A DNA stretch of 64,000 nucleotides from a virus. A model generated the notes under the pieces. That model was given only the letters and a program-made list of their open reading frames with translations. It was not told the DNA's origin and did no database searches. Each line of letters starts with the position of its first letter. Positions within the stretch are counted from its first letter, which is position 1. Both the position numbers and the translations under genes were made by a program. Below, piece after piece: positions 4,402 through 25,582 of this stretch. Location: IMG/VR virus record IMGVR_UViG_3300050821_004356, positions 1 through 64,000 of that record; one strand, 5' to 3'.

Positions 4402-4404
4402 TTC

Positions 4405-5721: not shown

Positions 5722-5731
5722 TTGATAAACT

Positions 5732-6679
5732 ATGTATACACTAACACAAAGTATTAATTGGTCCCAAGCTTTTTACGAGTACGCGCCTGTGACTGCGGGA
5801 CTCGGTCAAGAACCAGCAGTATCAACTGCGAATATGATTCGCGATACGCTGACTGGGCCGCCGATGACGTGGCCTTGGAATCGTGCCGTATTTCAGCTAG
5901 ATGCCCCGACGACCGTAGGTGAACAAGATTACCCAGTTCCACTGTCTTCTATTCCGGATTTTGGGTTTTTAGAAAAGGTTACGCTTACTGAAACAACAGG
6001 TGCGAACACTGGAAAAGTTTGGGAAATCAAAGACATCTACAATAACTTATCGATGTCACGAGACGCAGATAAACAACGCCCGAACTCAGCTTGCGTTTTC
6101 ACATTGTCGAGTACCCAACTGCTTTTGCGTTTCATCGGTGTACCGAATGCTGCGTATACGGTAACCTTGATATATCAAAAAAGGCCGGTTATGTTTGGTC
6201 CTTATATTATCTCGGCAGCCGGTAACGAATCTGCAGGAGACACGGTATACACAGGTACGTTTGATCCATTAGCATTTCCAGATGGGGCTGTTGCACAAAT
6301 CACTGGGTTCAAAACGAACATCGTAAACAATGGTTCGTTTGTCGTGGTTAATTGCACGGCGACAGCGCTTACTGTTGTTAACGCAGCTGGCGTAGCAGAA
6401 ACAATTACGGCGTACGCGAATAACTTTGATTGGGGTCCGATTCCGGACAGTTACCAAGATATTTACAATAATCTGTTTTTGAGCGAGATGTTCGCTGTCG
6501 AAGACGATGCTCGATCTCAAACGTATCGTCAACGTGGTATTGCAGCCTTTTTGTCCAAGGCCGAAGGTCTTACGCAGCTACAGCGTAACGCGTTTGTCCA
6601 GCAGTGGCTTGCAAGAGGTATTGAGTCAGCATCGTCAGCACAAACGGCTCAACTAGGAAGTCAGGCTCGCGGAGTCTAA
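5732..6679 (+). CDS. Putative head-tail adaptor (tail tubular protein A-like)
   Basis: WPWN...G..DY...P+P...Y.V.L.YQK...PIPD.Y adaptor-like pattern; position. Confidence 0.55.
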   Translation: MYTLTQSINWSQAFYEYAPVTAGLGQEPAVSTANMIRDTLTGPPMTWPWNRAVFQLDAPTTVGEQDYPVPLSSIPDFGFLEKVTLTETTGANTGKVWEIKDIYNNLSMSRDADKQRPNSACVFTLSSTQLLLRFIGVPNAAYTVTLIYQKRPVMFGPYIISAAGNESAGDTVYTGTFDPLAFPDGAVAQITGFKTNIVNNGSFVVVNCTATALTVVNAAGVAETITAYANNFDWGPIPDSYQDIYNNLFLSEMFAVEDDARSQTYRQRGIAAFLSKAEGLTQLQRNAFVQQWLARGIESASSAQTAQLGSQARGV

Positions 6680-6686
6680 GGAATAA

Positions 6687-11516: not shown

Positions 11517-11525
11517 AGGTATATA

Positions 11526-13364
11526 GTGGCAGATAATTCACCATCTATAAACGAAGAGGCAGGGCTTGGCCCAAACTGGAAGCCTATTGATGCGCCACCC
11601 ATAACTGGACGGCCAAGTCCACCATCAATTGGTGATATAACGCCCGTGATTCCGCAGTATTTCCAAGGTTCAATCGATCCGTCAATTCAGCACGACGTGA
11701 ACTTTGTAAACACGGCTCTTAGATCAACGAGCGCTCCTAGATTCGCTTTGATGCCTCCGGGAGTACAAAGCGTCGCGCTGACTTCTGCGCAAATTACAAG
11801 CGTAGCTAGTAGTGCTGCCTCTGCAGGTACAGGTCCCGGTCAGGGTGGCAGCGGCGGTGGTGGCGGAACAGGCGGCTCGGACTCTGATCAGATAACACTG
11901 GATATTCCGAGTATATTTACCCCTGTAACCCAAACGGTTACTTTGCCTGGGCCTTTAGAGTTTACGTTGGCTCCTGAGCCCGCCGGAACTGTTTTTTCTG
12001 GCCCCACCAACGCAGCTGTTGGTTTCGATGGCGCGTTCTTCAACACTGCGGCATCTTCTGGGGCGGGGAGTCTTACTGTTATTGGGGGAGTCCCGTCCAA
12101 TCCCAGCGGAGAGTATGCAGTTTATATTGCGGCGGGCGGGAATATCGCTGGTGCCCTTACTTTTACAGGTGCTCCTGCGGGATGGACCGTGCTCGGAGAA
12201 TCAACTGGCGTAAGTCCAGAGTATGCGATAGCGGTCCCTTCAACGGGCGTATCTGCTGTCGACACTTGGGCCGCTGGTCCGTCGGAAGCAAGTGGCATGA
12301 TCGTATACTTGAACGGCGCGTTACCATCGCTTTCTAATTTTGCTGCTGCGACACCGGGTAACACCTCCGTCTCTAAAGCATTAACGGGCATGACGGTTGG
12401 TAACAGTATTTTGGTTTTGTGTCATTGCACTCTACGCTTTTCAGTCGTCAGTGGAGTGCTATCGGATTCTCAAGGAAATACACCGATTTTACTCGGTACG
12501 GTGGGACAACCTTTTGGTGTCGGCGGCTCTATATTCGGATCACAGGTCTTCGTATACCTGATTCCTGCCGTATCGGCTGCCTCTGATACAGTGACTTTCT
12601 CTGTATCGCCAGCAAGTACATCGAACTCTTTGCGCATGGCTTTGTATGAGATTCCGCCTTCGAGCGCGATTGCGGCTATCCCTAGATTTCAGTTGCCGCC
12701 TCCTCCAAACGTTAGTAACGTCACTGGAATCTTATCTCCAGCGAACGGTGGGACGGGCGCGAATTTATCAACCACGGGTGGTCCTTCCGAAGTTGTAATG
12801 CAGACTACGGTGGGTGGTGCCTTTACGGTAGCGCAGTTAGCGGCGTCTGATTTGAGTAACGGAACCACAGGTAGTGGCGCGATTGTATTGTCCAATTCTC
12901 CCACGCTAGCAGGTAGCGTTATATTCACTGGTAAAATTACAAGTTACAACAATCTTGCCACCGTGAGTAACGGCATCCCGGAAGAAATCGCTACCATTGA
13001 TTTAATCAATCAAGCAGCCGCAATTACCCCTACGACACTATACGTGGTTACGGCGGGTCGCCCAGGTATGTATCGAATCTCTTGGGTCGCGACAGTGACT
13101 CAAGCGGACGCCGTGTCTTCTACTCTGGGACCTTTTCAGATTTTATATACTGATTTCGACACATCCGTGGTTAAAACTATGCCGGGAACGGTCGTGGCTG
13201 GCGTAGACAGCAACACTACGAACAGTACATCAACAGGAACTATTTCGGGATGCTTCATCGCCTACGTCGCGGCGTCCACCACCATTCAATATCAGATGGG
13301 CTATACGTCAGGTGTAACGCCCATGCAATACAACCTACATATAAAAGCCGAGTTACTAGGATGA
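11526..13364 (+). CDS. Putative tail fibre/spike
   Basis: 612 aa, G/S/T/A-rich, VTGILSPANGGTG fibre-type motif; position after the nozzle. Confidence 0.6.
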   Translation: MADNSPSINEEAGLGPNWKPIDAPPITGRPSPPSIGDITPVIPQYFQGSIDPSIQHDVNFVNTALRSTSAPRFALMPPGVQSVALTSAQITSVASSAASAGTGPGQGGSGGGGGTGGSDSDQITLDIPSIFTPVTQTVTLPGPLEFTLAPEPAGTVFSGPTNAAVGFDGAFFNTAASSGAGSLTVIGGVPSNPSGEYAVYIAAGGNIAGALTFTGAPAGWTVLGESTGVSPEYAIAVPSTGVSAVDTWAAGPSEASGMIVYLNGALPSLSNFAAATPGNTSVSKALTGMTVGNSILVLCHCTLRFSVVSGVLSDSQGNTPILLGTVGQPFGVGGSIFGSQVFVYLIPAVSAASDTVTFSVSPASTSNSLRMALYEIPPSSAIAAIPRFQLPPPPNVSNVTGILSPANGGTGANLSTTGGPSEVVMQTTVGGAFTVAQLAASDLSNGTTGSGAIVLSNSPTLAGSVIFTGKITSYNNLATVSNGIPEEIATIDLINQAAAITPTTLYVVTAGRPGMYRISWVATVTQADAVSSTLGPFQILYTDFDTSVVKTMPGTVVAGVDSNTTNSTSTGTISGCFIAYVAASTTIQYQMGYTSGVTPMQYNLHIKAELLG

Positions 13365-13792
13365 TAAGACTGACTGAAACAACCCAATCGGATATAGAAC
13401 AAATTCGAGAGTGGCTCGCCTGCGATCCTTGGCACAAGGATGATTCACGAAACGTTCCCGAACTTATGACGACAGGCAACGGTTTACTTTCTTATTGTTT
13501 GCAAGATGATGAAGGACCGATAGCATACGTTAAACTTACTGAGGAAGGTGAGTTGGTTCGAATCGCTATGCAGTTCGGGCCACAAGAAGAGGTTAGTAAA
13601 AAGCGTTTAGCAGTAGGCTTAGCCGAAGTAGGTATTCCGATTATCAAGGTATTCGCGTTAGAAAATGGATTCAAAGGTTTAGTATACGAGTCTATAAGTC
13701 CGAAGTTAATATTCTTTTGTGAAAAACTAGGTTTTAAAAGCGTAGGTAACGATGACTACGCGATGCTTTTTGGGGAAAATAAAAATGTGTGA
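13361..13792 (+). CDS. GNAT-fold virion assembly protein (T7 gp13-like position)
   Basis: ATG at 13361 overlaps the previous stop; C-terminal FCEKLGF GNAT-like motif; lies immediately before the ejection genes. Confidence 0.55.
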   Translation: MIRLTETTQSDIEQIREWLACDPWHKDDSRNVPELMTTGNGLLSYCLQDDEGPIAYVKLTEEGELVRIAMQFGPQEEVSKKRLAVGLAEVGIPIIKVFALENGFKGLVYESISPKLIFFCEKLGFKSVGNDDYAMLFGENKNV

Positions 13793-14516
13793 TCTTTTCG
13801 GGGGACCGAGCGAGGGAGAAACAACCTCCTACGATAACCAAGTAGGTATAACGAACTCAATGCGTTCTGCGTTTAACCAGCAATACGGCCAGCAACAAGG
13901 CGTGTTGGGACAGCTTAACGCACAGATCATGCGTATTCAGTCCGGACAAACAGGCCCTGGTTACGGCGGCGCTGAAAACGCGTCCAATATCGCGTTGATT
14001 CAAAATCAGGGCGCAGCACAAGCTCGCAATGCCATCCAAGCAGAACGTACACAGTCAGCCGGTGTCGGCGGTGGCGGGACAAGCGGTTTGGCTCGTTCAG
14101 CAGCTATTAACCGTCAGATTTCCGGTGGTATCGAAGCTTTGGCAGGCGCAAATACATCAAATCAATTAATCGGTGAACAAGCGGCGAATTACGCCCAAGG
14201 TCGTGCGAGTGCTCAGTCTGCCGTACAAGGTTTTCAAGCGCTCGCGGGAGACTATAATCCACTAGGGTATGCAAACGCATCAAGCAGTAGCAACCAGGCA
14301 CAGTTTGGTCAAGCCGATAAAATTAATCAACAGAAGATCGCAGCAAGTCAAGCAGAACTCGGCATGATTGAGAAGGGTGCAGCAACGGTGGCAACCGCTG
14401 GTGCGGGTGGTTTTGCCGCATTAGGTGGTGGAGAAAGTTTTGGCGAAGGTCTTTCGGACTTCGCGTCAGGGGCTTCCAATGCCACGTTTGGAACTAACTT
14501 TGGTATCAACGGATAA
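13785..14516 (+). CDS. Internal virion/ejection protein 1
   Basis: Starts MC; Q/A/G-rich helical sequence with glycine-rich hydrophobic C-terminus typical of podovirus core proteins. Confidence 0.6.
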   Translation: MCDLFGGPSEGETTSYDNQVGITNSMRSAFNQQYGQQQGVLGQLNAQIMRIQSGQTGPGYGGAENASNIALIQNQGAAQARNAIQAERTQSAGVGGGGTSGLARSAAINRQISGGIEALAGANTSNQLIGEQAANYAQGRASAQSAVQGFQALAGDYNPLGYANASSSSNQAQFGQADKINQQKIAASQAELGMIEKGAATVATAGAGGFAALGGGESFGEGLSDFASGASNATFGTNFGING

Positions 14517-14521
14517 GTGAA

Positions 14522-16924
14522 ATGAATACGCCACCACAAACTGAACAAGACGGATACCAACAGCTGTCGAACGCTGTCGGACCTAATCCTGCGCCAGCTA
14601 TTCCGAATTTGGACATCGCGAACTCGATGGTTGCGACACCAGGTGGTATCCTGTTGCCGCCTCAACAAGCTCCTGCGTCTTCGGCCGCACCAACCGCTCC
14701 CGGAGCAACAAGTTCGACGAATGCTGCACCCGCGCGCGACTGGCACACACAGCTAGGGGCCGCTGCACAGAAACTCATGATCGGAGGTATGGACCCGTTG
14801 AACGCATTGGTAGCTGGCGGCGTCCACGCCCTTGCTAATCTTAACAAAACAGCGCCTAGCGATACGCCTGCGCCTAGCAACACGACCTGGGATGCTGCGC
14901 AATCAAACACTGATGCAACGCAGCCGACTACTGCACCGCGCCCGCAACCATCAAACGCCAACAAAGTTATCCACGGAGTTGAGGCTAATTTGGGTGATCT
15001 CGCATCAGCCACAGAAGGCGGCACCGCAGGTGGTCCTATTGCGGGCGCATTTCGTGTTGCGAAAGCATCTACAACCCGCCAACGCGAAGAGCAAGAAAAC
15101 AATATCAAAATGGCTACTTCGAACGCGGCTATGCTTCACGAGCAACAGCTGCTCCACAAGACTGGTGAAGACGCCGTTCAAGCATCGTTGGCAATAGGCA
15201 AGCAATCTGCGGATGAAATGTTAGCGGCCCCGCACGCTGAAACTATTGCATCAGGAAAAAACTCAGATGAAATTAAGAAAATGATCGATAGTAAGGTACT
15301 CGACCCGTCCAAAGATGCAATATTCTTGACAGGTCGTGTTCTAACTGGTACCGATCAAAACGGTTTGCCGACATATCGTTCGACTTATTCTGTAATCAAA
15401 CCAGGCGACCGCATCCACCCTAGTCAAGAAAATATAGATTTTTTGAACAAATACCTCCCAGGTCAAGATTTCAAGGGGCCTGAAGACGTAGAAGAAGGTA
15501 AAGAAGGTCAGTCGTTCGACTCACACACATACTACATGCTGAATCAGCGCGCAATGAACCGCTTCGCAGATATGCAAGCTATCGCGAAGACCTCGGCAGA
15601 GACCGAAGACAAGGTACATAAGGCCTTACTTGAAAAAGGAAGCCAGGAACTCAGTGGCAATCAATACGTACAAGCCGCCATTCGTGATGTTCCTCCAGTT
15701 AAAGGCGGCGATCCGTTTTTGTTCCAAAAGGCATTCAACATTTTGGCTCGCGAAGCTGCGCTCGATCCAAATATTGCAAAGCAACTTCCTAAGAATTGGC
15801 AACAACAGTTCGCTTATACTTATGGCGGCGGCGAAACTAAGAAGTTCGAAGACCAGATGACGCAGTTAAGCAAGCTGCAAGAGAAGGCTCAAGATACTCA
15901 AAACGACATGTTGGATATCGCGATGAACAAGCCGCAAGAGATGGAGGGCCATACGCCCGCGTTTCAAGCAGCTTTAACCAAGATAGCAAATGACGCGGCC
16001 CAACCTCCCGAGAGACGCCAGAAAGCCACCGAGCTTTTAGGTGTAGTCAAAGACATTCGAGACGGTGAAGTACAAATAGAAAAAGATAAAGCTGCCGGTA
16101 AGAAACAAGCGGAAACAGGTTTTGTTGGCGATCCTACCGCCACAACTCCGGAAGGGTTTTTAAATAGTCTTACGCCGTCAGAACAGTCGCTTGTAAAACA
16201 AATAGGAACTGGAAAAATAACACTGTCTCGTATGGATTATTTGGTTTCTCGCAAGCCAGAAGTACTTGAGGCGGTCGGAAAGGCATTCCCGGATTTCGAT
16301 TCGTCGAAGGCAGGAAGCTATCCAGCTACTTATAAAGATTTCACGTCTGGAAAGACAGCCACAGCTTTGAATGCAGGTGGCACGGCTATGGGTCACTTGA
16401 AAGAGTTATATGACCTTAACACCCCTATGAGCCATATACCTCATACACCTGCGTGGACAGCGTATCAAAACAAGGCCGATACCCTGGCGACAGAGTTGGC
16501 TAAGTTTTATGGGGACGCGACAATCCCCGCTATTGCTGCGATTAAGGAAACACTAACATCTACGTTGCCTGGTAACAGAGAATCAGCCATCAAGACTCAG
16601 GCTCAATCTATGAACGATAAGTTAGAGTCCTTTGAACAACAGTGGAAGAACGCGGCACCAAGCAAAGCTTATGAAGCACCGCTTCCGTTCATTTCTCCAC
16701 AAGCAAAGAAAGCTTTCGCCAGTTTGAATCCGATATACGCTGCTGCCCATCCAGAATTAAACACTGGAAACCAACAACAGGATCAACAAACACAGTCGCA
16801 AACTCAAGCCACTCCATCGCAAACAGCTGGCGGGGGCGTGATTGTAAATACACCAGACGGGCCTGTTTCATTCAAAACTCAACAACTAGCAGACGCGTTT
16901 AGACTTAAACACGGACTAAAATAA
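14522..16924 (+). CDS. Internal virion/ejection protein 2
   Basis: 800-aa helical, A/Q/K-rich, Cys-free; position. Confidence 0.6.
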   Translation: MNTPPQTEQDGYQQLSNAVGPNPAPAIPNLDIANSMVATPGGILLPPQQAPASSAAPTAPGATSSTNAAPARDWHTQLGAAAQKLMIGGMDPLNALVAGGVHALANLNKTAPSDTPAPSNTTWDAAQSNTDATQPTTAPRPQPSNANKVIHGVEANLGDLASATEGGTAGGPIAGAFRVAKASTTRQREEQENNIKMATSNAAMLHEQQLLHKTGEDAVQASLAIGKQSADEMLAAPHAETIASGKNSDEIKKMIDSKVLDPSKDAIFLTGRVLTGTDQNGLPTYRSTYSVIKPGDRIHPSQENIDFLNKYLPGQDFKGPEDVEEGKEGQSFDSHTYYMLNQRAMNRFADMQAIAKTSAETEDKVHKALLEKGSQELSGNQYVQAAIRDVPPVKGGDPFLFQKAFNILAREAALDPNIAKQLPKNWQQQFAYTYGGGETKKFEDQMTQLSKLQEKAQDTQNDMLDIAMNKPQEMEGHTPAFQAALTKIANDAAQPPERRQKATELLGVVKDIRDGEVQIEKDKAAGKKQAETGFVGDPTATTPEGFLNSLTPSEQSLVKQIGTGKITLSRMDYLVSRKPEVLEAVGKAFPDFDSSKAGSYPATYKDFTSGKTATALNAGGTAMGHLKELYDLNTPMSHIPHTPAWTAYQNKADTLATELAKFYGDATIPAIAAIKETLTSTLPGNRESAIKTQAQSMNDKLESFEQQWKNAAPSKAYEAPLPFISPQAKKAFASLNPIYAAAHPELNTGNQQQDQQTQSQTQATPSQTAGGGVIVNTPDGPVSFKTQQLADAFRLKHGLK

Positions 16925-19900
16925 ATGCCTGATCCTCAGGAAACACAGCAGCAAGATATCGGAGCCACAGGACCCGCAACTGATCTTTCAACAAAAGATT
17001 TTCCTGCGGGAACCACAGGTGTGGACGACGGCGTAGCCCATGATGTATCGGGTAAACCGCTCGGTCAAGCAGGGGCTCCTGCGCAAAAAATAGACTATCT
17101 GGCAGAAGCCGCAAAGATGGGTGGTACTCCGGTTCCATCGAAGATTGACTATTTAGCGGAAGCTGCGAAGATGGGCGGCACGCCTGTACCACCTGAGACG
17201 AAGCAAAAAAGTGCTCCGGAACAATCGCACGATCTTTTGACACGCGCACTCTCGTGGGTGATGACAAAACCGCCACAGGATAGCAGCCTCGCGTCGGTAG
17301 CTGCACAAGCGAAAGACAATACATCCTTGGCTCAAGCTAAGAATGTCTCTGACTACATCTATAACAACATTCTTGGAAAAGATACGTACCAACACAATAA
17401 TATATCGTACGACGAAAAACCAACTACAGCTTGGGGCAACGTTAAACAGCGCATGTGGGGCTGGCTGACGCAAGATGAAGTTAACAAGATTCCAGGGCTT
17501 GAGCCCGACCGTGTTCAGATGTTGAATGAACAAGGCAAGGATATACTAGGTTCAATATTTGGTAAAGAAAAGGCAGATCAACTTCGCGAACATATTCTAA
17601 ACGGCAGTTGGGTAGTTAATCAACAACCTGAGGTTTTTGCTCGTGCGGCCGCTAAGTCTGTTACGGACTTTTTCTCCCCAGGCTATTATGCGCTCGGGGC
17701 ATTTGGTAGAGTAGCCCAAGGATATCAGAAGGCGGGTCAAGTAGCAGCTGCGGCCCAAGATTGGACTAAAGCCGCTTCTGCGATGGGCAAAGCTCGTTTG
17801 CTCGGTTTAATAGGCAGCATGGGCGTTAACGTCCCGTTTGCTGCTTCTCAAGCCCACGACTTAGTGGAAAACTGGGACAAGATGAACGTTCCAGAACGCG
17901 TCGCTGCGGTATCCGGTATCGTGGGTGCGTCGATCAACGCCCACATAGGTATTAATGCGGCCGGGGGTTATAAGAAAGTCGCAAGTGATGCGGCTACTGC
18001 AACAGGTCAAGCGGCGTCCGTCGCAACACAAGCGACTAAAAAAGCGGTCGGGTCGATGACAAGTCTCGGCAAAGCGCAGGATTTTAATACAGCTGTTGAG
18101 CGTGCTAGCGATATCACAAAAGCGGGTTTTGCTGACCATCGCGCCAAGATTCAAAATGTATCTCCAGACCTGCAAGCAATTCTTAATGCAAATCCGACTG
18201 TAAATTCCCCTCAAAAATTCGCTAAAGCCATAGACGATCATATTCAGAGTGGCGAACAGGCTCTCTTAGCAGCATCGGGAGCAACTCAGCACGATATAGC
18301 GCCCGTGGTTTCAAATCTTGAAACTCGCTTAGATGATCACCTGGATAAGTTTTTCAGCGACAATCGAGGCAAGTTCGGCACTCAGGATGAGGTCGACGCT
18401 GCGAAAGAAGATATAAAGAACCGTATTATGCAACAAGCCGGTAAGAATCCAGACGGCTCATCGATCCTTCGCGCGCCTAATCTTTTCGAATCGGAAAATA
18501 TACGTCAAGGCTTGAATATAGATGCTGCACCGCAATACCGCACCGATGCCAAGCCGACTACTAACGCATACAAGGCAGGCGCGTTTGAAGCAGCCAAGGT
18601 AATGCGCGAGGTTATCGATGAAGCGTACGGTAATCGAGGCATCGACAATGTCAAAGAACGTCGTCAGAAGGAAGCTAATCTTATTGACGTTCGTGACCGC
18701 TTGGCAATGGCCCAACAGAAAGCAGAAACTATGGGCAACGGCGGGCTGTGGGACGCCTTAATAAAGCGATTTAGTGTTCCGACGGTTATTACCGCCATCG
18801 CTCTCGGCCATAACCCACTAGCTTTAGGGGCATTGGCTCCGTATCTAGCTGGCGACCGCGTATATCAAAACGTCAAGAACCCGAACATTAACGTAGAACG
18901 AGCTAAGAAACTTGCTGCCCCGAACGCATCGGCTACCGAGTTATCCTTCCGTCCCCCAACACCTAGTGGGCAGCCTCCTGCGCTAGGGACTCCACCAGCA
19001 CCTGGAACCCCGTCAACCGGTGGTCCTGTGGTGCCATCTCCTGCGCCTGTAGCGCCTCCTGTGGCCCCTGTCCTTCCTTCGCACCCATCTCAGGACAATC
19101 CTCACCCTCAAGCCGCTCCTGAGCCTCTTCCTGCACCCCATGTGCTAGCTGACCAAGCGGCCGCTGTGGCACCGGCCACGATGGAAGAGCCTGCGACCAA
19201 TCACGCCTTGAACGCCGAGTTAGCGACCCATTTTGGCGAGCCTTTGACCCATGCGACATTAGATGATCGTGTCGAACACGTTAAGAATGATGTCGAAGCA
19301 ATGCGCAAAACTGGCGTAGCGTTGACCCCGGTTCAGACCAAGGTCCTTGGGGCAATCAACGAACACGAAGCTGCGCACACAGAAGCCATCGAGCAAACGC
19401 AAAAGAAGTCTCGGGAAGACGCGTATAAAGTTGCCGAAGAATTGCACAAAATGCTCGCTCAGGAAGCGGCCGAAGAGAAGAAACAAAAGGTAGAAGAGGC
19501 TAAAAAAGCAAAGGCCGCTGAGCCACAAGAAGGACTAAAAAATAAGCAAGCTGCTGCGGCTTCTGTGCTTGATCATACCGAACCTGAAGCAAAGCCGATT
19601 GAGTATACCGACGAAGAAATACCAGTACCACAACAATATAAATATGTTAAGCCACGCAATACTCGTATACACGAGGCTGGGCATATAGTCGGAAGCCACG
19701 CTGCGGGAATGGCACCTTTAGATATCATCTCCCATTTACATCCGGAAGGAGACCCGGATGCGTTAGCGGAAGCTCGTTCCAGTTTAGATTCTTTGAAATA
19801 TACAGATGATCAAATAAAGCTTGGTAAGGATACCCTTGGTTTTGCTATACAACGTGGACAGATCGATCCCGCCAAAGTAAAGGCTAAGTTATCAGAACTC

Positions 19901-22900
19901 ACGGTACGAGCCCTCTCGGGCGGTATGGCAGAAGAGATTTACGGCGGCGTACCGTTTGAAGGAAATAAAACAACGCACGGTGATCTAGAAGGTATTAGGT
20001 CAATTTTGCGCGAGTACGGTGAGTTGTCAGACGGCGAAATAGAGCGTTTTATCGACATGCATAAGGCGCGCACGAAAAAGCTGTTGACAAGCCCGGGTAT
20101 GAGTGATATATTTAACAAGTATGCGGACAAGCGTATCGCTGGTCAAGATAACAGCCATCACCTTAACCCGGCACTAACAGCACAGATGACGGGAGAATTG
20201 GACGCACTCGGAGGTAAAAATGCAAGGCAAAGCAGTGGACAGGGCAACGAAGGAAATACTCGCGGCGCTCAAAAAGAGAACACCGGAACAGAAGGCGAAG
20301 GACGCGGTCGAGGTGCGAGCGATGTTCCAAAAACTCAGCAACGAGCCCAAGGCTTAGTTGAAAAGAGCACCGGCGACCACGATATCGATGCGGTAATTCG
20401 TAACGGCGGCGGCATTCCTGCGGGCATGCAAGATTTTGGCGAGTTTGGCAAAATCCATATGTTTCACGACCCCGAGACGGGATCAACATTAGGTTTCAAG
20501 CCTAGCGAAAAGATCACACCTCAAAACGTGGGCAAGAAGCTCGCGAAGAGTCGTGAAGATTTTGCTGCGGGCGAAAAGGCTAATGCTAAACGCGAAGAAG
20601 CTGAGAAGGTTTTGGCGACGAAACAAGCCGCTGAAAAAGAAAAGAAGCCTATGAATTTAGGCGAACCCGCTCAGGCTTACGACGAATCGAAATTTCCGTA
20701 TAGCCAACCAGTAAAAGTTACTTGGCCGGATGGTACTGTTCACGAGGACGAAGTTAAGGGGTTGAATTCGGGCCACGCCTTGGCTCGCGCTAAGTCGAAT
20801 TGGGAAGGCGCGAAAGTAGAACCAAACGGTCCAGGGACGAAGCGAACGGATATGCAAACAGAGCTCGCCAAAACTCGTGAACAGTCTCGTGCAGATCGCT
20901 CTCATGCGTTATCTGTTGACGTAGAAAAGGCGTTCAACACGAAACAAGCCGCTGAAAAAGAAGACAGCCCCGTTGTAAAAAGTCTTTTGGAAAAATACGG
21001 TGAAACTAAAGACCCGCTAGGTACCGGCTTTATTTTATCTGACGGCCGACGAGTTAACACAGGCGGCGCAGACCACGCAACAGCTGTTCGTGTTTCTACA
21101 CCGTTAGAGGAACGCAGTCCTAATAAAGATCGAGACTTAAATGATTTTATAAATCGCGAAAAGGTAGTTCGCACCAGATACCGAACAGGAAGAGGCGGCG
21201 ACGAAGTTGTTTTCTCAGTTCCTAAGGAAGGTTTAACAGAAGAACACATATCGCAGATGCGTCAAGCTGTGGGTAAAATGGGGCGTAACGGTAATGCCGT
21301 AATGGAGGTTGCCGAGCCAGATGGCGCGTCTACCCAGAAGGACTTTGTTCGCCCATCCGATATAGATTCGATGCTGCGCGAAATAGGCGCTCATCCGGAA
21401 CAAAAAGGCGATTTAGAATCGTACACGAAGCCGATGCCACTGCCCAAGGCTTTATTAGAGCACCCAGATTGGCAAGCATCGGGTATGACCGAAGCCGGTA
21501 TCCATCACCACGAATTAGCTCATGGAATTATCGGTAAGCTGGAGGGTTTTAATCAGAGGGGTATAATAAGCAACCGCCATCCGCTAGCAAAAAAAGGAGT
21601 TGGTAGAGGTACATCCATCATTGCTGCTGCATCTTTCGATCCACCTACTCAGGCTAGATCACTAGCTACTTTACCGTCATTTCTGGATAGAGCGATGGCT
21701 GGTGCCGCTGCAAACGAGGCGCTAGACAATGTGCCCAGAGATAAGAACCCGGGTCTAATAGGCGATATGGCCAATGCTCGTAGGGCCTTGAGCGCGGCGG
21801 GCTTTCCTGAGAGCGAGCACCAAGCGTTGATAGATCAATCAATTAATCGGATAAAAGAGAAGTTGACAAAGCCTGGGGTTGCTGATATAATAAGGGAAGC
21901 TGGTAGAACCAGAGAAGACAATCTTCCTGTGGAGTTTCATCACAGCGAGAATAAGGTTAACTATGTCACGGATAAAATTCGAGGGATACTAAATGGACAA
22001 CAAGATAATAACACGACAGGAATTAGCGGAACAAGAGATCAAGTTAATCGAGAGCCTATCGCCGGAAGAGAAGGCGAAGCTCCGAGAGCAAATCCGAGCA
22101 AGGCTGAAAAGCTAAAGCCATTCTCGCCGCCTAAGAACACGTACGAAGTGGAGATCACGGACCCACAAGGAAACGTACGCACAGAAAGCATACAGGCTTT
22201 GAATCACAAGGCTGCTTTTAAACAAGTGTTCGCTAAGGGTGAGGATGTTCGACAGGTCCATATCAAGAGCGAAACCAAACCGACCGTTGGTGAACCGTTT
22301 GAGACTAAACAAAAGTCTGCGGTAGCTGACGCGGCCGATGAATTCAACAAAGAAAAAGGCCGCGACGAGATTGTCCCAGGCACTTCGCACAATCCCGAAT
22401 TGGCAAAGCGCATAGCCGACGCGTACGATAAGATGCCGCACAGTCCCAATGATCCTGCGGTTGAGAAGTCCTACGATTCGTTGAAGAAGGATATTGACGA
22501 CCAGTGGGATTACGCCAAGGACAAGATGGGCATCAAGTTCGAACCTTGGAAGAAAGACGGCCAGCCGTACGCTAACTCGAAAGAGATGGTCGCCGACGTA
22601 AAGAACAATAAGCATTTGTACTTCTTTCAAGGCGGCGAATTACCTGAAGATCACCCGTTGACCGAGCAAGCAGGCGAAGGTTTGTCGTACAACGATAAGT
22701 TGCGCGCGGTCCACGATTTATTCGGACACGCTGCGCACGAGTATCAGTTCGGGCCTAAGGGCGAAGAGAACGCTTGGAACGTCCACCGCCAAATGTTCTC
22801 GCCCGCGTCTATCCCGGCCGTAACCACTGAAACGCGCGGTCAGAACTCTTGGGTTAACTACGGACAACACTTGCGCGTACCCTTTAAAGAAGGTCAAACA

Positions 22901-25393
22901 GTTCCACCAGAGCGTACCACCGGCAACGCAGCCACTGATGCTGCGATCAAACAAGGTGGCGCTATCCCAGGTGGGTTTGAAAAGGGCGACGCAGATGCCA
23001 AGGTCCCGGATATGGCGCACTTCCACGATCCGACAACGGGCTCTACCTTAGTTTTGTCGGCAGACCAACTCACGCCGGAAGCGGTTAAGCAAGAGTTAGC
23101 AAAGTCTCGGCAAACGTATTTGAAGGCCAAGCCGGAAGAGAGCCGCATACCAGAAAGGGGTCAACCTGGCTATATTCCTCCAACCGAGCGCCCGTACGCC
23201 CAAAATAAGGCAGGTTTACTGCCGGAAGAGTTCCACGTCCCCAACAATTTGAATATTGACTTGGATAAACATCCTGCTGGCGGCATCGATCCTCGCACTG
23301 GTAGCATGGAAAGCAAGCGGTACGGCTTAGAGATTCACCCCGAGGATCGAATGGTTCTCGACCACAAGCCAACTGCACAAGACTTCCAACGATACGCCAA
23401 CGAACACGCGGACGTTTTGAAGCAACATCCAGATATGAAACTCGGATGGGACACGCTTGGGGATAAGCCCGAGCTCAACATCGGCGTTTCAACCGACGAC
23501 TTGGATGCTGCGAAGAAAGTCGGGGCTAAATTAGACCAGCGCGCGATTTGGGACACCAAGGAACAAAAGGAAATACCAACTGGTGGGAAGAATACACAAC
23601 GCGAGTTCCCAGACTATTCGCTAAAGTCTCGGTTGGATGATTTGAGCACGAAGCAATCTGCAGGAAGTTGGCAGCCACCCGCCGATCTTGAAAAAGGAAT
23701 TCCCAAGGATGAGGCAGTAGAAACTCAAATACCGTTAACTAAGATTTCTGTAGGCGAAAGAGCATACAATCAAGCTACGTCTAACTACTTTAGAAAACGA
23801 GGCAGTAAAACTGAAGGGCCTATTAGCCTCGTCTATAATCCAGATAACGGGCAGTATTTAGTTGAAGACGGGATGCATCGGTTGGTACAAGCGCATCAAG
23901 AAGGTAAGACGAATATTCCTGCGAAGATTTGGTCGGGACATTCTGATATAGCGAATGTTCTTCCTGAACAAAAAATGGATTTGTCTCCTATCGAGAACGA
24001 AGATGAAGATAATTTATCCACGAAACAAAAATCAGACGAGGACTTCGAATTCGGCCATAACGTAGCCGATACTGCGGATCAACAAAAGGGAATCATCTCG
24101 ACGGCGGTTCCAGGCGGTAAGAACGCGATAGCCGATCCACACACTGAGAATGTCCACGTTGGAATGCAATCTTTGACGCCTGAAACTAAGGAAAAGATCG
24201 CTGATAAGATTCGCAAAATGCCTGGGATGAGAACTCCCGAGAATATTACGGACCCCGACAAGGTCATCGGCCGGTACATCAACCAGTTTAAAGAGAACTT
24301 GAAGGACCTTTACAACCAGGTGCCTAAAGAAACTCGCGATGCTACCGCAAAGTGGTACGAAAGCGCCAACAGTATTGCTGACAAGTTTGCTTCCAAGTAT
24401 GGTAAGAGTACGAAGCAAGGTGCCGGTGTGTTGGCTGCGATGTCTCCTCAGAAAGATTGGAACATGAACGTCGGGCTGGCCGAACGCTTGACCGACATTT
24501 ACCACACCAAAAATAACGAACCGTTGTCACCAGAGGCTCGCGTCAAGGCTCGTGAGATAGGATTAGGCGGTATGGTGGCTGCTATCGGTGATAAGACGCT
24601 TAGTCAACTTACCGAACCGTTGGAGAAGGCCGCTTTTATTCGCATTTACGACGAGGCACACAACGACCGTTCGTTTCAAAACGTTGATCCAGCAACCGGC
24701 GAATACACGAACGTTATGAAAAACAACGACGGTTCTAACTCGAAAATCGCTTGGGGCGCTTTGAACGAAATTGCGAAGGCCGTAAACATCCTCGACGACG
24801 GTAGCCGTGAGAACATCAGCCGTAACCTAGGTGGATCGCACAAGGTTCGCAACTTTTATAACAACATTATCGATCCGAATAACCCAGGCGGGCACGTTAC
24901 TATCGATACGCACGCCGTCGCTGCGGGTCACCAGCGTCCATTGAGTGGCAAAGACCCCGAGGTATTAGATAACTTCGAACGGTTGAGCGCCCTTAAGACT
25001 GGTTTGAAGGGCACGTACGCCGTGAACGCCGAGGCTTACCGTCAGGCAGCCAAGGAATTAGGTTTGCAGCCACGCCAGCTTCAATCAATCGTGTGGGAGC
25101 AAGTTCGTAAAGACTTCCCGATGGAACTAAAGTCTAACGAAACCCATAAGGCCGCCATCGACGATATCTGGAGCCAATACAAGAATGGCAAAATTACCCA
25201 AAAGGAAGCCCAGGGACAAGTCCGCGATTATGCGAAAACAGCCCGAGAGCAAATAGAAGCTAACGCAGAGAAGCCGTCTACACAGCAAGATTTTGGATTC
25301 CCTATTTTGCCTAGCAAATTCGTGAACTTTAAGAGCAAAGTCGGGCAGGAACCGGCGCTAGAATCAGGGCTTGACAAACTCGGCGGAAAGTGA
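16925..25393 (+). CDS. Giant ejection/polyvalent protein (2822 aa): two M41/FtsH-like Zn-peptidase domains, HDxxGH metal-binding domain, ParB-like domain, C-terminal HhH-glycosylase-like domain
   Basis: HEAGH(19670)...GGMAEE...GD; HELAH(21509)...AGAAANE...GD; RAVHDLFGH(22712)...ETRGQN; PISL...YLVEDGMHR(~23860); WYE...SPQKDW..N...KVRNFYNN...VTIDTHA...QLQSIVW. Confidence 0.8.
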   Translation: MPDPQETQQQDIGATGPATDLSTKDFPAGTTGVDDGVAHDVSGKPLGQAGAPAQKIDYLAEAAKMGGTPVPSKIDYLAEAAKMGGTPVPPETKQKSAPEQSHDLLTRALSWVMTKPPQDSSLASVAAQAKDNTSLAQAKNVSDYIYNNILGKDTYQHNNISYDEKPTTAWGNVKQRMWGWLTQDEVNKIPGLEPDRVQMLNEQGKDILGSIFGKEKADQLREHILNGSWVVNQQPEVFARAAAKSVTDFFSPGYYALGAFGRVAQGYQKAGQVAAAAQDWTKAASAMGKARLLGLIGSMGVNVPFAASQAHDLVENWDKMNVPERVAAVSGIVGASINAHIGINAAGGYKKVASDAATATGQAASVATQATKKAVGSMTSLGKAQDFNTAVERASDITKAGFADHRAKIQNVSPDLQAILNANPTVNSPQKFAKAIDDHIQSGEQALLAASGATQHDIAPVVSNLETRLDDHLDKFFSDNRGKFGTQDEVDAAKEDIKNRIMQQAGKNPDGSSILRAPNLFESENIRQGLNIDAAPQYRTDAKPTTNAYKAGAFEAAKVMREVIDEAYGNRGIDNVKERRQKEANLIDVRDRLAMAQQKAETMGNGGLWDALIKRFSVPTVITAIALGHNPLALGALAPYLAGDRVYQNVKNPNINVERAKKLAAPNASATELSFRPPTPSGQPPALGTPPAPGTPSTGGPVVPSPAPVAPPVAPVLPSHPSQDNPHPQAAPEPLPAPHVLADQAAAVAPATMEEPATNHALNAELATHFGEPLTHATLDDRVEHVKNDVEAMRKTGVALTPVQTKVLGAINEHEAAHTEAIEQTQKKSREDAYKVAEELHKMLAQEAAEEKKQKVEEAKKAKAAEPQEGLKNKQAAAASVLDHTEPEAKPIEYTDEEIPVPQQYKYVKPRNTRIHEAGHIVGSHAAGMAPLDIISHLHPEGDPDALAEARSSLDSLKYTDDQIKLGKDTLGFAIQRGQIDPAKVKAKLSELTVRALSGGMAEEIYGGVPFEGNKTTHGDLEGIRSILREYGELSDGEIERFIDMHKARTKKLLTSPGMSDIFNKYADKRIAGQDNSHHLNPALTAQMTGELDALGGKNARQSSGQGNEGNTRGAQKENTGTEGEGRGRGASDVPKTQQRAQGLVEKSTGDHDIDAVIRNGGGIPAGMQDFGEFGKIHMFHDPETGSTLGFKPSEKITPQNVGKKLAKSREDFAAGEKANAKREEAEKVLATKQAAEKEKKPMNLGEPAQAYDESKFPYSQPVKVTWPDGTVHEDEVKGLNSGHALARAKSNWEGAKVEPNGPGTKRTDMQTELAKTREQSRADRSHALSVDVEKAFNTKQAAEKEDSPVVKSLLEKYGETKDPLGTGFILSDGRRVNTGGADHATAVRVSTPLEERSPNKDRDLNDFINREKVVRTRYRTGRGGDEVVFSVPKEGLTEEHISQMRQAVGKMGRNGNAVMEVAEPDGASTQKDFVRPSDIDSMLREIGAHPEQKGDLESYTKPMPLPKALLEHPDWQASGMTEAGIHHHELAHGIIGKLEGFNQRGIISNRHPLAKKGVGRGTSIIAAASFDPPTQARSLATLPSFLDRAMAGAAANEALDNVPRDKNPGLIGDMANARRALSAAGFPESEHQALIDQSINRIKEKLTKPGVADIIREAGRTREDNLPVEFHHSENKVNYVTDKIRGILNGQQDNNTTGISGTRDQVNREPIAGREGEAPRANPSKAEKLKPFSPPKNTYEVEITDPQGNVRTESIQALNHKAAFKQVFAKGEDVRQVHIKSETKPTVGEPFETKQKSAVADAADEFNKEKGRDEIVPGTSHNPELAKRIADAYDKMPHSPNDPAVEKSYDSLKKDIDDQWDYAKDKMGIKFEPWKKDGQPYANSKEMVADVKNNKHLYFFQGGELPEDHPLTEQAGEGLSYNDKLRAVHDLFGHAAHEYQFGPKGEENAWNVHRQMFSPASIPAVTTETRGQNSWVNYGQHLRVPFKEGQTVPPERTTGNAATDAAIKQGGAIPGGFEKGDADAKVPDMAHFHDPTTGSTLVLSADQLTPEAVKQELAKSRQTYLKAKPEESRIPERGQPGYIPPTERPYAQNKAGLLPEEFHVPNNLNIDLDKHPAGGIDPRTGSMESKRYGLEIHPEDRMVLDHKPTAQDFQRYANEHADVLKQHPDMKLGWDTLGDKPELNIGVSTDDLDAAKKVGAKLDQRAIWDTKEQKEIPTGGKNTQREFPDYSLKSRLDDLSTKQSAGSWQPPADLEKGIPKDEAVETQIPLTKISVGERAYNQATSNYFRKRGSKTEGPISLVYNPDNGQYLVEDGMHRLVQAHQEGKTNIPAKIWSGHSDIANVLPEQKMDLSPIENEDEDNLSTKQKSDEDFEFGHNVADTADQQKGIISTAVPGGKNAIADPHTENVHVGMQSLTPETKEKIADKIRKMPGMRTPENITDPDKVIGRYINQFKENLKDLYNQVPKETRDATAKWYESANSIADKFASKYGKSTKQGAGVLAAMSPQKDWNMNVGLAERLTDIYHTKNNEPLSPEARVKAREIGLGGMVAAIGDKTLSQLTEPLEKAAFIRIYDEAHNDRSFQNVDPATGEYTNVMKNNDGSNSKIAWGALNEIAKAVNILDDGSRENISRNLGGSHKVRNFYNNIIDPNNPGGHVTIDTHAVAAGHQRPLSGKDPEVLDNFERLSALKTGLKGTYAVNAEAYRQAAKELGLQPRQLQSIVWEQVRKDFPMELKSNETHKAAIDDIWSQYKNGKITQKEAQGQVRDYAKTAREQIEANAEKPSTQQDFGFPILPSKFVNFKSKVGQEPALESGLDKLGGK
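17087..17192 (+). repeat. Tandem coding repeat KIDYLAEAAKMGGTPVP x2
   Basis: Identical 17-aa unit twice, with synonymous nucleotide differences. Confidence 0.85.
20220..20357 (+). CDS. Nested +1-frame small gene after peptidase domain 1 (MQGKAVDRATKEILAALKKRTPEQKAKDAVEVRAMFQKLSNEPKA, 45 aa); putative cognate inhibitor
   Basis: Strong SD GGAGGT(20210-20215) then AAAA-ATG; amphipathic helical peptide; resembles the nested ORF at 21993. Confidence 0.7.
   Translation: MQGKAVDRATKEILAALKKRTPEQKAKDAVEVRAMFQKLSNEPKA
20618..20962 (+). repeat. 24-nt identical direct repeat ACGAAACAAGCCGCTGAAAAAGAA (20618-20641; 20939-20962) encoding TKQAAEKE
   Basis: Direct sequence comparison. Confidence 0.85.
21993..22115 (+). 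CDS. Nested +1-frame small gene after peptidase domain 2 (MDNKIITRQELAEQEIKLIESLSPEEKAKLREQIRARLKS, 40 aa); putative cognate inhibitor
   Basis: SD GAGGGA(21981-21986), 6 nt before ATG; SPEEKAK aligns with TPEQKAK of the first nested ORF. Confidence 0.7.
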   Translation: MDNKIITRQELAEQEIKLIESLSPEEKAKLREQIRARLKS

Positions 25394-25414
25394 TAGTCTA
25401 AGGGGATGAGGATT

Positions 25415-25582
25415 ATGGATTACGTTTTAGACTGGTTAAAGGAAAACAACGTCCCGGCGACGCGCCGGAATTATGTCGGTTTGAATTGGCCGGGAGCAGA
25501 CTACGATAAACCTCTGCCCGCAGAACTAGAGGCGGAAATACCCGAGGAACTGCAGCATCCAGATTTTAAAGAAGTAAAATAA
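25415..25582 (+). CDS. Small acidic protein (55 aa) directly after the giant gene; possible partner/immunity for its C-terminal domain
   Basis: MDYVLDWLKENNVPATRRNYVGLNWPGADYDKPLPAELEAEIPEELQHPDFKEVK; SD AAGGGG; below the ORF-track cutoff. Confidence 0.65.
   Translation: MDYVLDWLKENNVPATRRNYVGLNWPGADYDKPLPAELEAEIPEELQHPDFKEVK

Follow-up and report, generated by a model that had tools for sequence, protein, structure and literature searches.

Conserved small genes overprinted in the +1 frame behind FtsH/M41-like peptidase domains of a giant phage polyvalent protein

The closest described precedent for the arrangement analyzed here is the pair of spanin genes Rz/Rz1 of phage lambda, in which a small gene lies entirely within a larger phage gene, in its +1 frame and over a stretch of the host gene that tolerates mutation, and the two products bind each other (PMC5295617). 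The window, a stretch of 64,000 nucleotides of viral DNA (positions 1 to 64,000 of IMG/VR record IMGVR_UViG_3300050821_004356), contains two small genes that share with Rz1 both the embedding and the tolerant location, whereas binding between the products is, in this case, predicted only. The differences are nonetheless substantial: the nested genes show no sequence, lipobox or membrane relation to the spanins, their function is unrelated to lysis, their host is a 2822-aa multidomain polyprotein, and each nested gene accompanies a single type of domain, recurring with every copy of it.

The host gene belongs to another described class, the polyvalent proteins, giant phage proteins that string together unrelated domains and one to several HExxH peptidase domains (Iyer et al. 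2017, PMC5512222). Zincin peptidase domains have been reported as the commonest domain of these proteins, and the MPTase domains have been proposed to cleave the polyprotein that carries them, either ahead of packaging or once it has been injected; their clades were stated not to be specifically related to previously defined zincin clades (PMC5512222). The clade examined here differs in having an FtsH/M41-type fold with an H-H-D triad. No nested partner is described by Iyer et al. (PMC5512222), where the words 'overlapping' and 'frameshift' do not occur, and our literature search found no paper describing such a nested-partner arrangement. With toxin-immunity and protease-inhibitor pairs the present locus shares a small cognate partner located beside an enzyme domain, the two co-varying and duplicating together, except that the partner here is out of frame within an uninterrupted ORF rather than a downstream gene.

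The giant gene (positions 16925 to 25393, plus strand, as are all features below) is the host frame of both nested genes. Its product combines two peptidase domains, two FHDPxTGSTL domains, DUF7178 and several PHROG modules in a single polypeptide, as in polyvalent proteins, and one phage relative is annotated as 'large polyvalent protein'. The multidomain homologues span 1562 to 2716 aa, with the modules shuffled among them. In the C-terminal half, the sole family matches are DUF7178 and PHROG families of unknown function, and the large neighboring genes are almost devoid of PHROG matches. A conserved main-frame domain (20360 to 20599) carrying the motif FHDPETGSTL (20462 to 20491) is near-invariant in the closest homologues (P0004 to P0006); the FHDPxTGSTL motif is present in most homologues, with a second copy in this protein at 23021 to 23050. 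Because this domain resumes directly 3' of the overlap with the first nested gene, the giant frame evidently continues through the overlap.

Domain 1 of the two peptidase domains (19577 to 20224; family HMM E = 6.9e-62) contains HEAGH at 19670 to 19684 and, by homologue alignment, a putative third zinc ligand, Asp1020, at 19982 to 19984; domain 2 (21407 to 22000; E = 2.3e-63) contains HELAH at 21509 to 21523 and Asp1614 at 21764 to 21766. The two are paralogous (31% identity over 99 aa, E = 1e-5). Both His of HExxH are invariant across 11 homologues, and three homologues (L008a, L010a and L012a) have HDxxH instead, a variant that lacks the catalytic Glu and is therefore probably catalytically impaired. 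The downstream Asp (Asp120 of the domain alignment) is invariant, lies in a G-D helix and is aligned by profile with the Asp of the 'SND' segment in FtsH 'GASNDIKVA'; from knowledge of FtsH structures, we take it to be a zinc ligand. When the AF2 model of domain 2 (pLDDT 77) was compared with 48161 chains using VIA-align, ranks 1 to 8 were all protease domains of FtsH, FtsHi or Ycf2 (Z 8.3-12.1, 138-162 residues aligned, rmsd 3.1-3.9), followed by 5iqj, a protein of unknown function, at Z 6.8 and other chains at Z of 4.4 or less. The best Foldseek matches were FtsH/YME1, with a probability of 0.97-1.0 but E-values of 0.03-0.1, and the domain profile matched FtsH in the PDB at E = 0.0033. At the level of Pfam, the relationship is more remote: the giant protein does not reach the PF01434 gathering score and has no PF01434 match at E = 0.1 or better, and PF01434 is the best family for only 1 of the 11 domain members (E = 0.0022). 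Unlike FtsH proper, the domain is internal to a phage polyprotein and has neither a membrane anchor nor an AAA+ module; no AAA family was found by Pfam in the 2822-aa protein, and the peptidase domain is flanked by unrelated modules. On these alignments and models, we classify the peptidase as an FtsH/M41-like fold with an H-H-D zinc triad.

Where each of these domains ends, a small +1-frame gene begins. Nested gene 1 (P0002; 20220 to 20357, 45 aa) starts 4 nt (AAAA) after a Shine-Dalgarno sequence GGAGGT (20210 to 20215) that encodes Gly-Gly in the main frame; nested gene 2 (P0003; 21993 to 22115, 40 aa) starts 6 nt after the SD-like sequence GAGGGA (21981 to 21986), and its ATG is directly preceded by a +1-frame stop (TAA-ATG). 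The coordinates of the large ORF, HEAGH, HELAH, SD sequences and ATG codons given in a preliminary description of this DNA are all borne out by the sequence, as is its observation that an SD and an ATG coincide with the domain ends (20224 against an ATG at 20220, and 22000 against an ATG at 21993). Over both nested ORFs, the main frame is a G/N/E/R/Q/T-rich spacer (G/N/E/R/Q at residues 1099-1145 over nested gene 1). Against an HMM built without the window, nested gene 2 scores at E = 2.2e-9 and is a clear family member; its 40-aa homologue P0020 shares 78% identity with it, all differences being conservative, and AF2 predicts a helix-turn-helix hairpin (helices 8-20 and 24-39, pLDDT 84.5). 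Nested gene 1 reaches 10.3 bits, equivalent to E = 0.59 among 15371 stretches or to approximately 4e-5 if taken as a single pre-specified stretch, and outscores 1000 of 1000 synonymous recodings (recoded maximum 9.4 bits); it is a divergent, weak member. The resemblance between the two window peptides asserted in the preliminary description is weak as a pairwise likeness (28% identity across 36 aa; E = 0.008 within a set of 23 sequences). Neither P0002 nor P0003 has a Pfam match. We considered, and rejected, an identity with DUF3106/LTXXQ (Spy, CpxP-like) proteins, the Pfam models of which match neither peptide; the weak profile matches P0023, P0027 and P0146, which carry PF11304 or PF13801, are repeat proteins with signal peptides, and the likeness does not extend beyond the S/T-P-E-E helix cap.

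The case for the reality of the nested genes comes from related phages. Loci were sampled from IMG/VR, JGI and GTDB without the use of the peptide, via either the downstream FHDPxTGSTL motif or the protease; at the DNA level, the window's own lineage was tested only through relatives more distant than its closest homologues (P0004-P0006 and P0020). On the first check proposed in the preliminary description, the +1 ORF and its ribosome-binding site are conserved behind the M41-like domain: in 13 of 15 distinct protease domains, the peptide-HMM match begins between -8 and +37 nt from the end of the protease match, and the remaining two domains are followed by unrelated +1 ORFs, each with an SD and an ATG. 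The family core is M-S/T-P-E-E/Q-K-A-x-h-R. Among 23 copies, the start is ATG in 21 and GTG in two, and 22 are preceded by an SD-like site at a distance of 3-9 nt; the sequence thus appears to provide these genes with their own translation start. A reverse scan by the peptide motif yielded 63 loci, and all 17 true family members among them are nested in the +1 frame of protease-carrying ORFs (382-2163 aa), in contrast to the 46 chance motifs, which lie in frame in ordinary proteins; in a six-frame scan, 33 of 33 family matches fell in the +1 frame of a giant ORF. At least 17 different giant genes contain the domain together with its nested gene, in one or two copies each, and the similarities of domain and peptide co-vary (Spearman 0.67), which supports the proposed cassette, the two behaving as a unit. 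That the same hidden gene is kept after the same domain in related phages implies that this unannotated small protein is almost certainly real.

Might the nested ORFs nevertheless be chance products of T-poor spacer DNA, with their likeness a by-product of constraint on the main frame or on the nucleotide sequence, such as RNA structure or a recombination junction? The ORFs are no longer than chance would allow, and the +1 frame remains open in 30-100% of main-frame-synonymous recodings (40-100% for the two spacers of the window), so that openness carries no evidential weight and it is the conservation in related phages that exceeds chance; moreover, out-of-frame similarity does arise wherever the main frame is strongly conserved. 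Here, however, the main frame is the poorly conserved one: over the overlap, the spacer scores 0.49 per site in BLOSUM62 units and is almost without column conservation, against 1.66 in the +1 frame, as expected from the earlier suggestion that the constraint on these low-complexity stretches resides in the other frame. Family peptides score 28-73 bits, compared with means of -0.7 to 4.2 and a maximum of 28 for synonymous recodings; for nested gene 2, none of 1000 recodings exceeds 19.4 bits, compared with a real score of 37.4. For the first, second and third codon positions of the +1 frame, the excess of column identity over composition in the overlap is +0.17, +0.38 and +0.05, respectively, and the adjacent protease gives +0.21, +0.31 and +0.06 in the main frame; because the excess is highest at +1-frame position 2, the wobble base of the main frame is the most conserved. 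In the close pair L074/L076, the overlap contains 6 changes, of which none is synonymous or at position 3 in the main frame and 5 are synonymous in the +1 frame, whereas 79 of 106 changes in the flanks are at position 3 (Fisher p = 0.0005). Together with the conserved start, SD and stop, and with the occurrence of the module in frame in other proteins, these patterns support the status of both +1 ORFs as genuine conserved protein-coding genes overprinted on the spacer; the chance explanation is disfavoured, and we consider it extremely improbable. Only slightly less improbable, in our judgment, is the absence of a separate gene, with some ribosomes shifting to +1 at the end of the protease to yield a truncated product ending in a hairpin that folds back in cis. 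The close apposition of the protease and peptide matches fits such a shift, and in prfB an SD-like sequence is known to stimulate +1 shifting. Yet all 23 copies retain an ATG or GTG, and the SD is spaced as is usual for initiation; a search of the same copies found no conserved slippery sequence, and the main frame offers no stop or rare codon to provoke a shift. In addition, 10 of 23 copies have a +1-frame stop 0-1 codon ahead of the start codon, and in nested gene 2 of the window the two are adjacent, leaving almost no room for frame entry.

If the nested genes are translated separately, their products probably dock onto the protease. In complex modelling of peptide 2 with domain 2, the cognate pair reached a score of 0.86 (the model's own confidence) compared with 0.01 for the best control. 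Among solved complexes, 58 of 80 attained this mark, as did 2 of 110 mismatched pairs; both counts hold only roughly because the alignments were our own. Agreement between the runs extends to at least 55% of contacts, and the pLDDT of the partner is at least 81. On the protease side, the modelled interface involves His39-Gly40 of HExxH and residues 119 and 123, which flank the invariant Asp120, and on the peptide side, the conserved K27, L30 and R31; the model thus supports placement of the helical hairpin beside the zinc ligands of the upstream peptidase. Of the structural check proposed in the preliminary description, modelling each peptide with cognate and non-cognate protease domains, this result covers the cognate part for pair 2, with controls taken from outside the peptide family.

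Taking into account all these observations, the explanation that we favor, with moderate confidence as a whole, is that the two overprinted genes encode hairpins that dock on the upstream peptidase and likely act as a regulatory cap. Each nested gene would be translated from its own SD and ATG inside the giant mRNA, although internal initiation within a translated ORF is usually inefficient, which counts against it. The predicted product is a hairpin of about 40 residues, the second helix of which begins at the conserved S/T-P-E-E cap; it would dock non-covalently at the helices around the zinc site of the peptidase encoded just upstream, and the domain and nested gene would be inherited and duplicated as one cassette. 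During synthesis and packaging of the giant protein, the cap may restrain the peptidase or fix it in a defined state. We propose that, as a separate chain, the cap would come off when the protein is unfolded and ejected, which would allow the peptidase to cleave the polyprotein inside the newly infected host. For the peptidase domains of polyvalent proteins, published work favors self-processing of the polyprotein over a toxin role (PMC5512222).

A purely inhibitory function is complicated by two observations: the HDxxH domains, although lacking the catalytic Glu, retain their own conserved peptide subtype, and the module is also fused in frame to another domain. Both would suit genuine nested genes whose hairpin is a docking or assembly module, that is, a structural subunit, a folding or packaging helper, or an adaptor tethering other components to the M41-like domain. 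The fusions occur in three independent protein clusters (P0040, P0061 and P0143), where the module precedes a domain of approximately 330 aa that lies near YbjN/CesT chaperone-like clusters in the ESM Atlas (scores 0.84-0.92; a lead) and is possibly chaperone-like itself; the tandem pairs of modules in several loci and proteins point the same way. Against such a role, the modelled contacts with a zinc-ligand His and with neighbors of the ligand Asp would suit occlusion of the active site, and the majority of copies consist of the module alone, about 40 aa, with no further part that could be tethered. We regard a docking or assembly role as rather unlikely, without dismissing it, and retain the regulatory cap as the preferred interpretation.

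A broader proposition, which we advance only tentatively, is that a peptidase domain with an out-of-frame partner constitutes a general mobile cassette of phage polyvalent proteins, the partner being an ejection-triggered switch that would cap the zinc site in the producer cell and in the virion and be stripped by unfolding during ejection, so that the polyprotein would cut itself into active effectors only in the next host. If so, partner genes missed by annotation would be systematically concealed in the linkers of giant phage proteins. A conserved hidden partner after one peptidase clade would in any case be a missing component in the possible control of injected polyproteins, and the role of the peptidase domain becomes directly testable, given that mutating the nested ATG to ACG only exchanges one Asn codon (AAT) for another (AAC) in the giant frame. 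Giant phage genes carry, in their disordered linkers, dual-coding DNA that gene callers either skip or call by accident only; reading such linkers as 'low complexity' from their composition is misleading because the other frame dictates their sequence. The profile search with the peptide retrieved 228 cluster representatives at E = 1e-3 or better, and seven of these that were looked up are nameless or just 'hypothetical protein'. Within the giant gene of the window, 16 same-strand out-of-frame ORFs are at least 30 aa long.

The giant gene of the window, an ORF of 2822 codons (16925..25393, + strand), encodes a polyvalent protein with two zinc peptidase domains, the zinc motifs of which are HEAGH in domain 1 (19670-19684) and HELAH in domain 2 (21509-21523); the two domains are paralogues (31% across 99 aa, E 1e-5). 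Each is followed by a nested gene in the +1 frame: gene 1 (P0002; 20220..20357; 45 aa) has GGAGGT-AAAA directly 5' of its start, and gene 2 (P0003; 21993..22115; 40 aa) has GAGGGA and 6 nt at this place. The coordinates given for the ORFs, motifs and Shine-Dalgarno (SD) sites in the preliminary description all proved correct when the window was re-checked. The low-complexity linker that it had reported in the main frame was also recovered, as a spacer rich in G, N, E, R, Q and T that spans both nested genes.

Within the giant gene, there are 16 same-strand out-of-frame ORFs of at least 30 aa, and when such spacers were recoded synonymously in the main frame according to the codon usage of the gene, the +1 frame remained open in 30-100% of the recodings. 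Open +1 frames thus come free because the spacer is T-poor, and ORF length was rejected as proof of coding. Plain out-of-frame BLAST similarity was rejected as well, given that an all-against-all comparison of the out-of-frame stretches yielded wrong-frame similarity wherever the main frame was well conserved; such similarity was also seen on the antisense strand and across main-frame domains with strong conservation. Because neither length nor plain similarity is informative, a frame-specific comparison was needed.

The homologues of the giant protein in the protein database (P0004-P0013) have shuffled modules. No relatives of the window segment or of alignment A1 were found among viral contigs or metagenome contigs, and Megablast of the giant gene against phage records produced no match. 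We scanned IMG/VR with FHDPxTGSTL, a main-frame motif that is located 3' of the spacer and does not depend on the +1 peptide. Of the 11 loci with this motif, seven contain one or two homologous protease domains (23-31% identity), and in all seven, a +1 ORF directly 3' of the protease domain encodes a peptide resembling those of the window. The pattern common to the +1 peptides is T-T-x-Q-L, followed after about 12 residues by M-S/T-P-E-E/Q-K-A-x-h-R. A search with a DNA pattern based on the core of the peptide detected 63 IMG/VR loci that were cleanly separable into two groups: 17 with E <1e-13 against the peptide HMM, all nested in the +1 frame of enclosing ORFs (382-2163 aa), which match the protease HMM as well, and 46 with E >1e-6, which represent a common motif read in frame in ordinary proteins.

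Protease-based scans added further loci in a contig of an archaeon-labelled MAG (L072) and in JGI metagenomes (L073-L079), and the b-type protease domains from these scans likewise carry the peptide. When all loci collected before these protease-based scans were scanned with the HMM in six frames, a +1 peptide match was located between -8 and +37 nt from the protease domain in 27 of 27 cases; all 33 peptide matches were in the +1 frame of the enclosing giant ORF, with none in other frames and none alone. With the count limited to domains found without use of the peptide, the family peptide follows 13 of 15 protease domains. The expectation that homologues would have a +1 ORF after each M41-like domain is thus largely borne out, with the SD and the start kept. 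Behind two divergent domains, HEHGH and HEWAH (L072:1489-2200 and L073:573-1350), the +1 frame holds ORFs of 59 and 66 codons with an SD and ATG, for which no similarity to the peptide family was detectable; these ORFs may be either a second family of nested genes or copies that have decayed. The L072 contig (CABMCB010000010.1), with a cassette-containing giant gene, comes from a genome bin labelled 'uncultured archaeon isolate LFW-28', a label that may reflect mis-binning of a phage contig or a wider host range. In some giant genes, two nested peptide genes are arranged in tandem behind a single protease domain (L003:2824-3078 and L019, the latter on the - strand with two peptide matches about 610 nt apart).

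Several lines of evidence address the frame under selection. The real +1 peptides score 28-73 bits, compared to means of -0.7 to 4.2 bits and a maximum of 28 for main-frame-synonymous recodings, and this result holds for 10 copies left out of HMM building; hence the amino acid sequence of the spacer does not account for the peptide. In a codon-phase analysis of 22 copies and 30 gapless codons, identity above composition in the +1 frame of the overlap was +0.17, +0.38 and +0.05 at positions 1, 2 and 3, and the corresponding main-frame values in the adjacent protease were +0.21, +0.31 and +0.06. The coding phase, therefore, shifts by one base at the boundary of the protease domain and, because the main-frame wobble base is position 2 of the +1 frame, it is the best conserved base in the overlap. 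The mean BLOSUM62 score per site was 1.66 in the +1 frame vs 0.49 in the main frame. At +1 position 3 (position 1 in the main frame), T accounts for only 3%, a scarcity that fits a second constraint, namely, that the giant frame must stay open.

Substitution counts for an aligned close pair of loci (L074/L076, about 11% divergent) follow the same phase. In the protease (600 nt), 55 of the 83 changes are synonymous in the main frame and four in the +1 frame, and 61 fall in main-frame position 3; downstream (300 nt), the respective numbers are 16, 0 and 18 of 23. Among the six changes in the overlap (135 nt), none is synonymous in the main frame, five are silent in the +1 frame, and none affects main-frame position 3 (Fisher p 0.0005 for position-3 changes in the overlap vs the flanks). 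Among 23 copies, 21 start with ATG and 2 with GTG, and 22 have an SD-like site 3-9 nt 5' of the start, for the most part AGGAG or AAGGAG at a distance of 5-8 nt; a +1 stop lies 0-1 codon ahead of the start in 10 of the 23. Comparison of the sequences shows that the +1 frame is under protein-coding constraint, with conserved start signals, and is tied to one domain type.

Membership of the two window peptides in this family was scored with an HMM from which the window had been left out, against 15371 six-frame stretches. Gene 2 obtained 37.4 bits (E 2.2e-9), and its database homologue P0020 has the same length, 40 aa, and 78% identity, with all replacements conservative; an ESM Atlas search with P0003 returned no usable match. 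Gene 1 obtained 10.3 bits (E 0.59, or about 4e-5 as a single pre-specified stretch), and both genes outscored 1000 of 1000 synonymous recodings. Judging from its position, frame, SD, ATG and TPEQKAK core more than from overall similarity, gene 1 is a divergent member of the family.

The protease identity proposed in the preliminary description is supported by fold and profile, although Pfam M41 was not reached by the protease domains (best E 0.0022, for one member). In an alignment of 11 protease sequences, His35, His39 and Asp120 are invariant, and the profile matches E. coli FtsH (E 0.0033), with HExxH and the 'GG-AA-E ... G-D' segment collinear and Asp120 aligned to the Asp of the FtsH 'SND' segment. 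Searches of the PDB with single sequences of the protease domains gave nothing significant, whereas the profile and fold searches did match. The best structural matches of the AF2 model (pLDDT 77) are all FtsH, FtsHi, Ycf2 or YME1, with Foldseek probabilities of 0.97-1.0, yet E of 0.03-0.1; in VIA-align, ranks 1-8 have Z of 8.3-12.1, followed by a protein of unknown function, 5iqj (6.8), and the rest at 4.4 or less. Given the FtsH-type fold and profile and the lack of an AAA+ module, the protease is an M41-like stand-alone domain inside a polyvalent protein. Such peptidases are described as the commonest domain of polyvalent proteins and have been proposed to self-process the protein before packaging or after injection (PMC5512222); the words 'overlapping' and 'frameshift' do not appear in that paper. 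In one sub-clade (L008:1078-1897; L010:1875-2676, - strand; and the first cassette of L012), HDxxH and GGVANDL replace HExxH and GG-AA-E, so that the catalytic Glu is missing and these domains may be inactive.

All three HDxxH domains have the same longer subtype of the peptide as their partner (core EPEQK ... GIQQSFD ... LLKEKA), and similarities among protease domains and among peptides are correlated (Spearman 0.67). Taken together, these observations indicate that protease and nested gene are inherited as a unit, in accord with the cassette originally proposed. The peptide of gene 2 is modelled by AF2 as a hairpin (pLDDT 84.5) in which helix 8-20 and helix 24-39 are joined by a turn at an S-x-S-P cap. 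The predicted complex of domain 2 with peptide 2 scored 0.86 vs 0.01 for the best control. Of 80 solved complexes, 58 attained this mark, as did 2 of 110 mismatched pairs; these are rough counts because custom alignments were used. The runs share at least 55% of contacts, with partner pLDDT of at least 81. The predicted interface includes, on the protease side, His39-Gly40 of HExxH, residues 119 and 123 beside Asp120, and helices 89-96, 126-133 and 141-148, and on the peptide side, the conserved hydrophobic positions together with K27, L30 and R31. The model supports docking of peptide 2 on domain 2 close to the zinc site.

Beyond the giant genes, searching 1.84 billion representatives with the profile yielded 228 matches at E <=1e-3, and among the 150 listed, the median length is 74 aa for the 156 sequences that re-match the peptide HMM. 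Seven looked up by cluster are unnamed or only 'hypothetical protein', and none of them has a protease in the same frame as the peptide. Some database proteins (P0014, P0028-P0032) contain two tandem modules in one frame, comparable to the tandem genes of L003 and L019. Three clusters of metagenomic proteins of 389-709 aa (P0040, P0061 and P0143) are in-frame fusions in which the module, at the start or in the middle, precedes a domain of about 330 aa that all three have in common; in P0143, a response-regulator receiver domain is present as well. The 330 aa domain has no Pfam match, and its placement near YbjN/CesT chaperone-like clusters in the ESM Atlas (0.84-0.92) is only a lead towards a chaperone-like domain. 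A few weak matches were rejected as DUF3106 or LTXXQ-type repeat proteins or a GA-module protein that have only the S/T-P-E-E helix cap in common with the family; one of these, the in-frame match P0030 (2420 aa), is an unrelated GA-module repeat protein.

Under the model considered most likely, the peptide, as a chain of its own, would cap the peptidase and be available at the site of synthesis of the giant protein; the cap could be stripped as the giant protein unfolds for ejection, and with the cap lost, self-processing would be timed to the next host. Both the retention of a peptide by the HDxxH domains and the in-frame fusions of the module count against a purely inhibitory role and are equally compatible with docking or a chaperone function. 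Production of the peptide by a +1 frameshift from the giant frame, in contrast, is unlikely because ATG and SD are conserved and +1 stops adjoin the start. In their arrangement, the nested genes resemble lambda Rz1, a gene embedded in the +1 frame of Rz over a mutationally silent stretch, the product of which binds that of the host gene (PMC5295617); for the nested peptides, partner binding is predicted here. The arrangement had been put forward as undescribed and, in a literature search of limited extent, we found no papers on nested genes in polyvalent proteins. Embedded +1 genes with binding products are already known, and the novelty is the domain-linked, repeatable cassette of a peptidase plus an out-of-frame partner.

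The 58-aa ORF just 3' of the stop of the giant gene (25406-25582) has no match to the peptide HMM and no PHROG match. The large genes 5' of the giant gene (3520-16924; 1609, 612 and 800 aa, and others) have almost no PHROG matches, so the phage lineage of the window is poorly represented in annotated collections. The FHDPxTGSTL domain, which is without a Pfam family, is present in two copies in the giant protein (20360-20599 and 22910-23150) and in most relatives adjoins the 3' side of the protease-plus-peptide cassette. The tripeptide TKQ occurs seven times in the giant protein compared to 0.6 expected (window 17198-24412; aa 92, 1232, 1339, 1794, 2242, 2366 and 2496). Giant proteins of other loci have no such enrichment, which is thus specific to the lineage of the window, where TKQ is found mostly at domain junctions as xTKQ-A/K/S, a placement that would suit cleavage sites.
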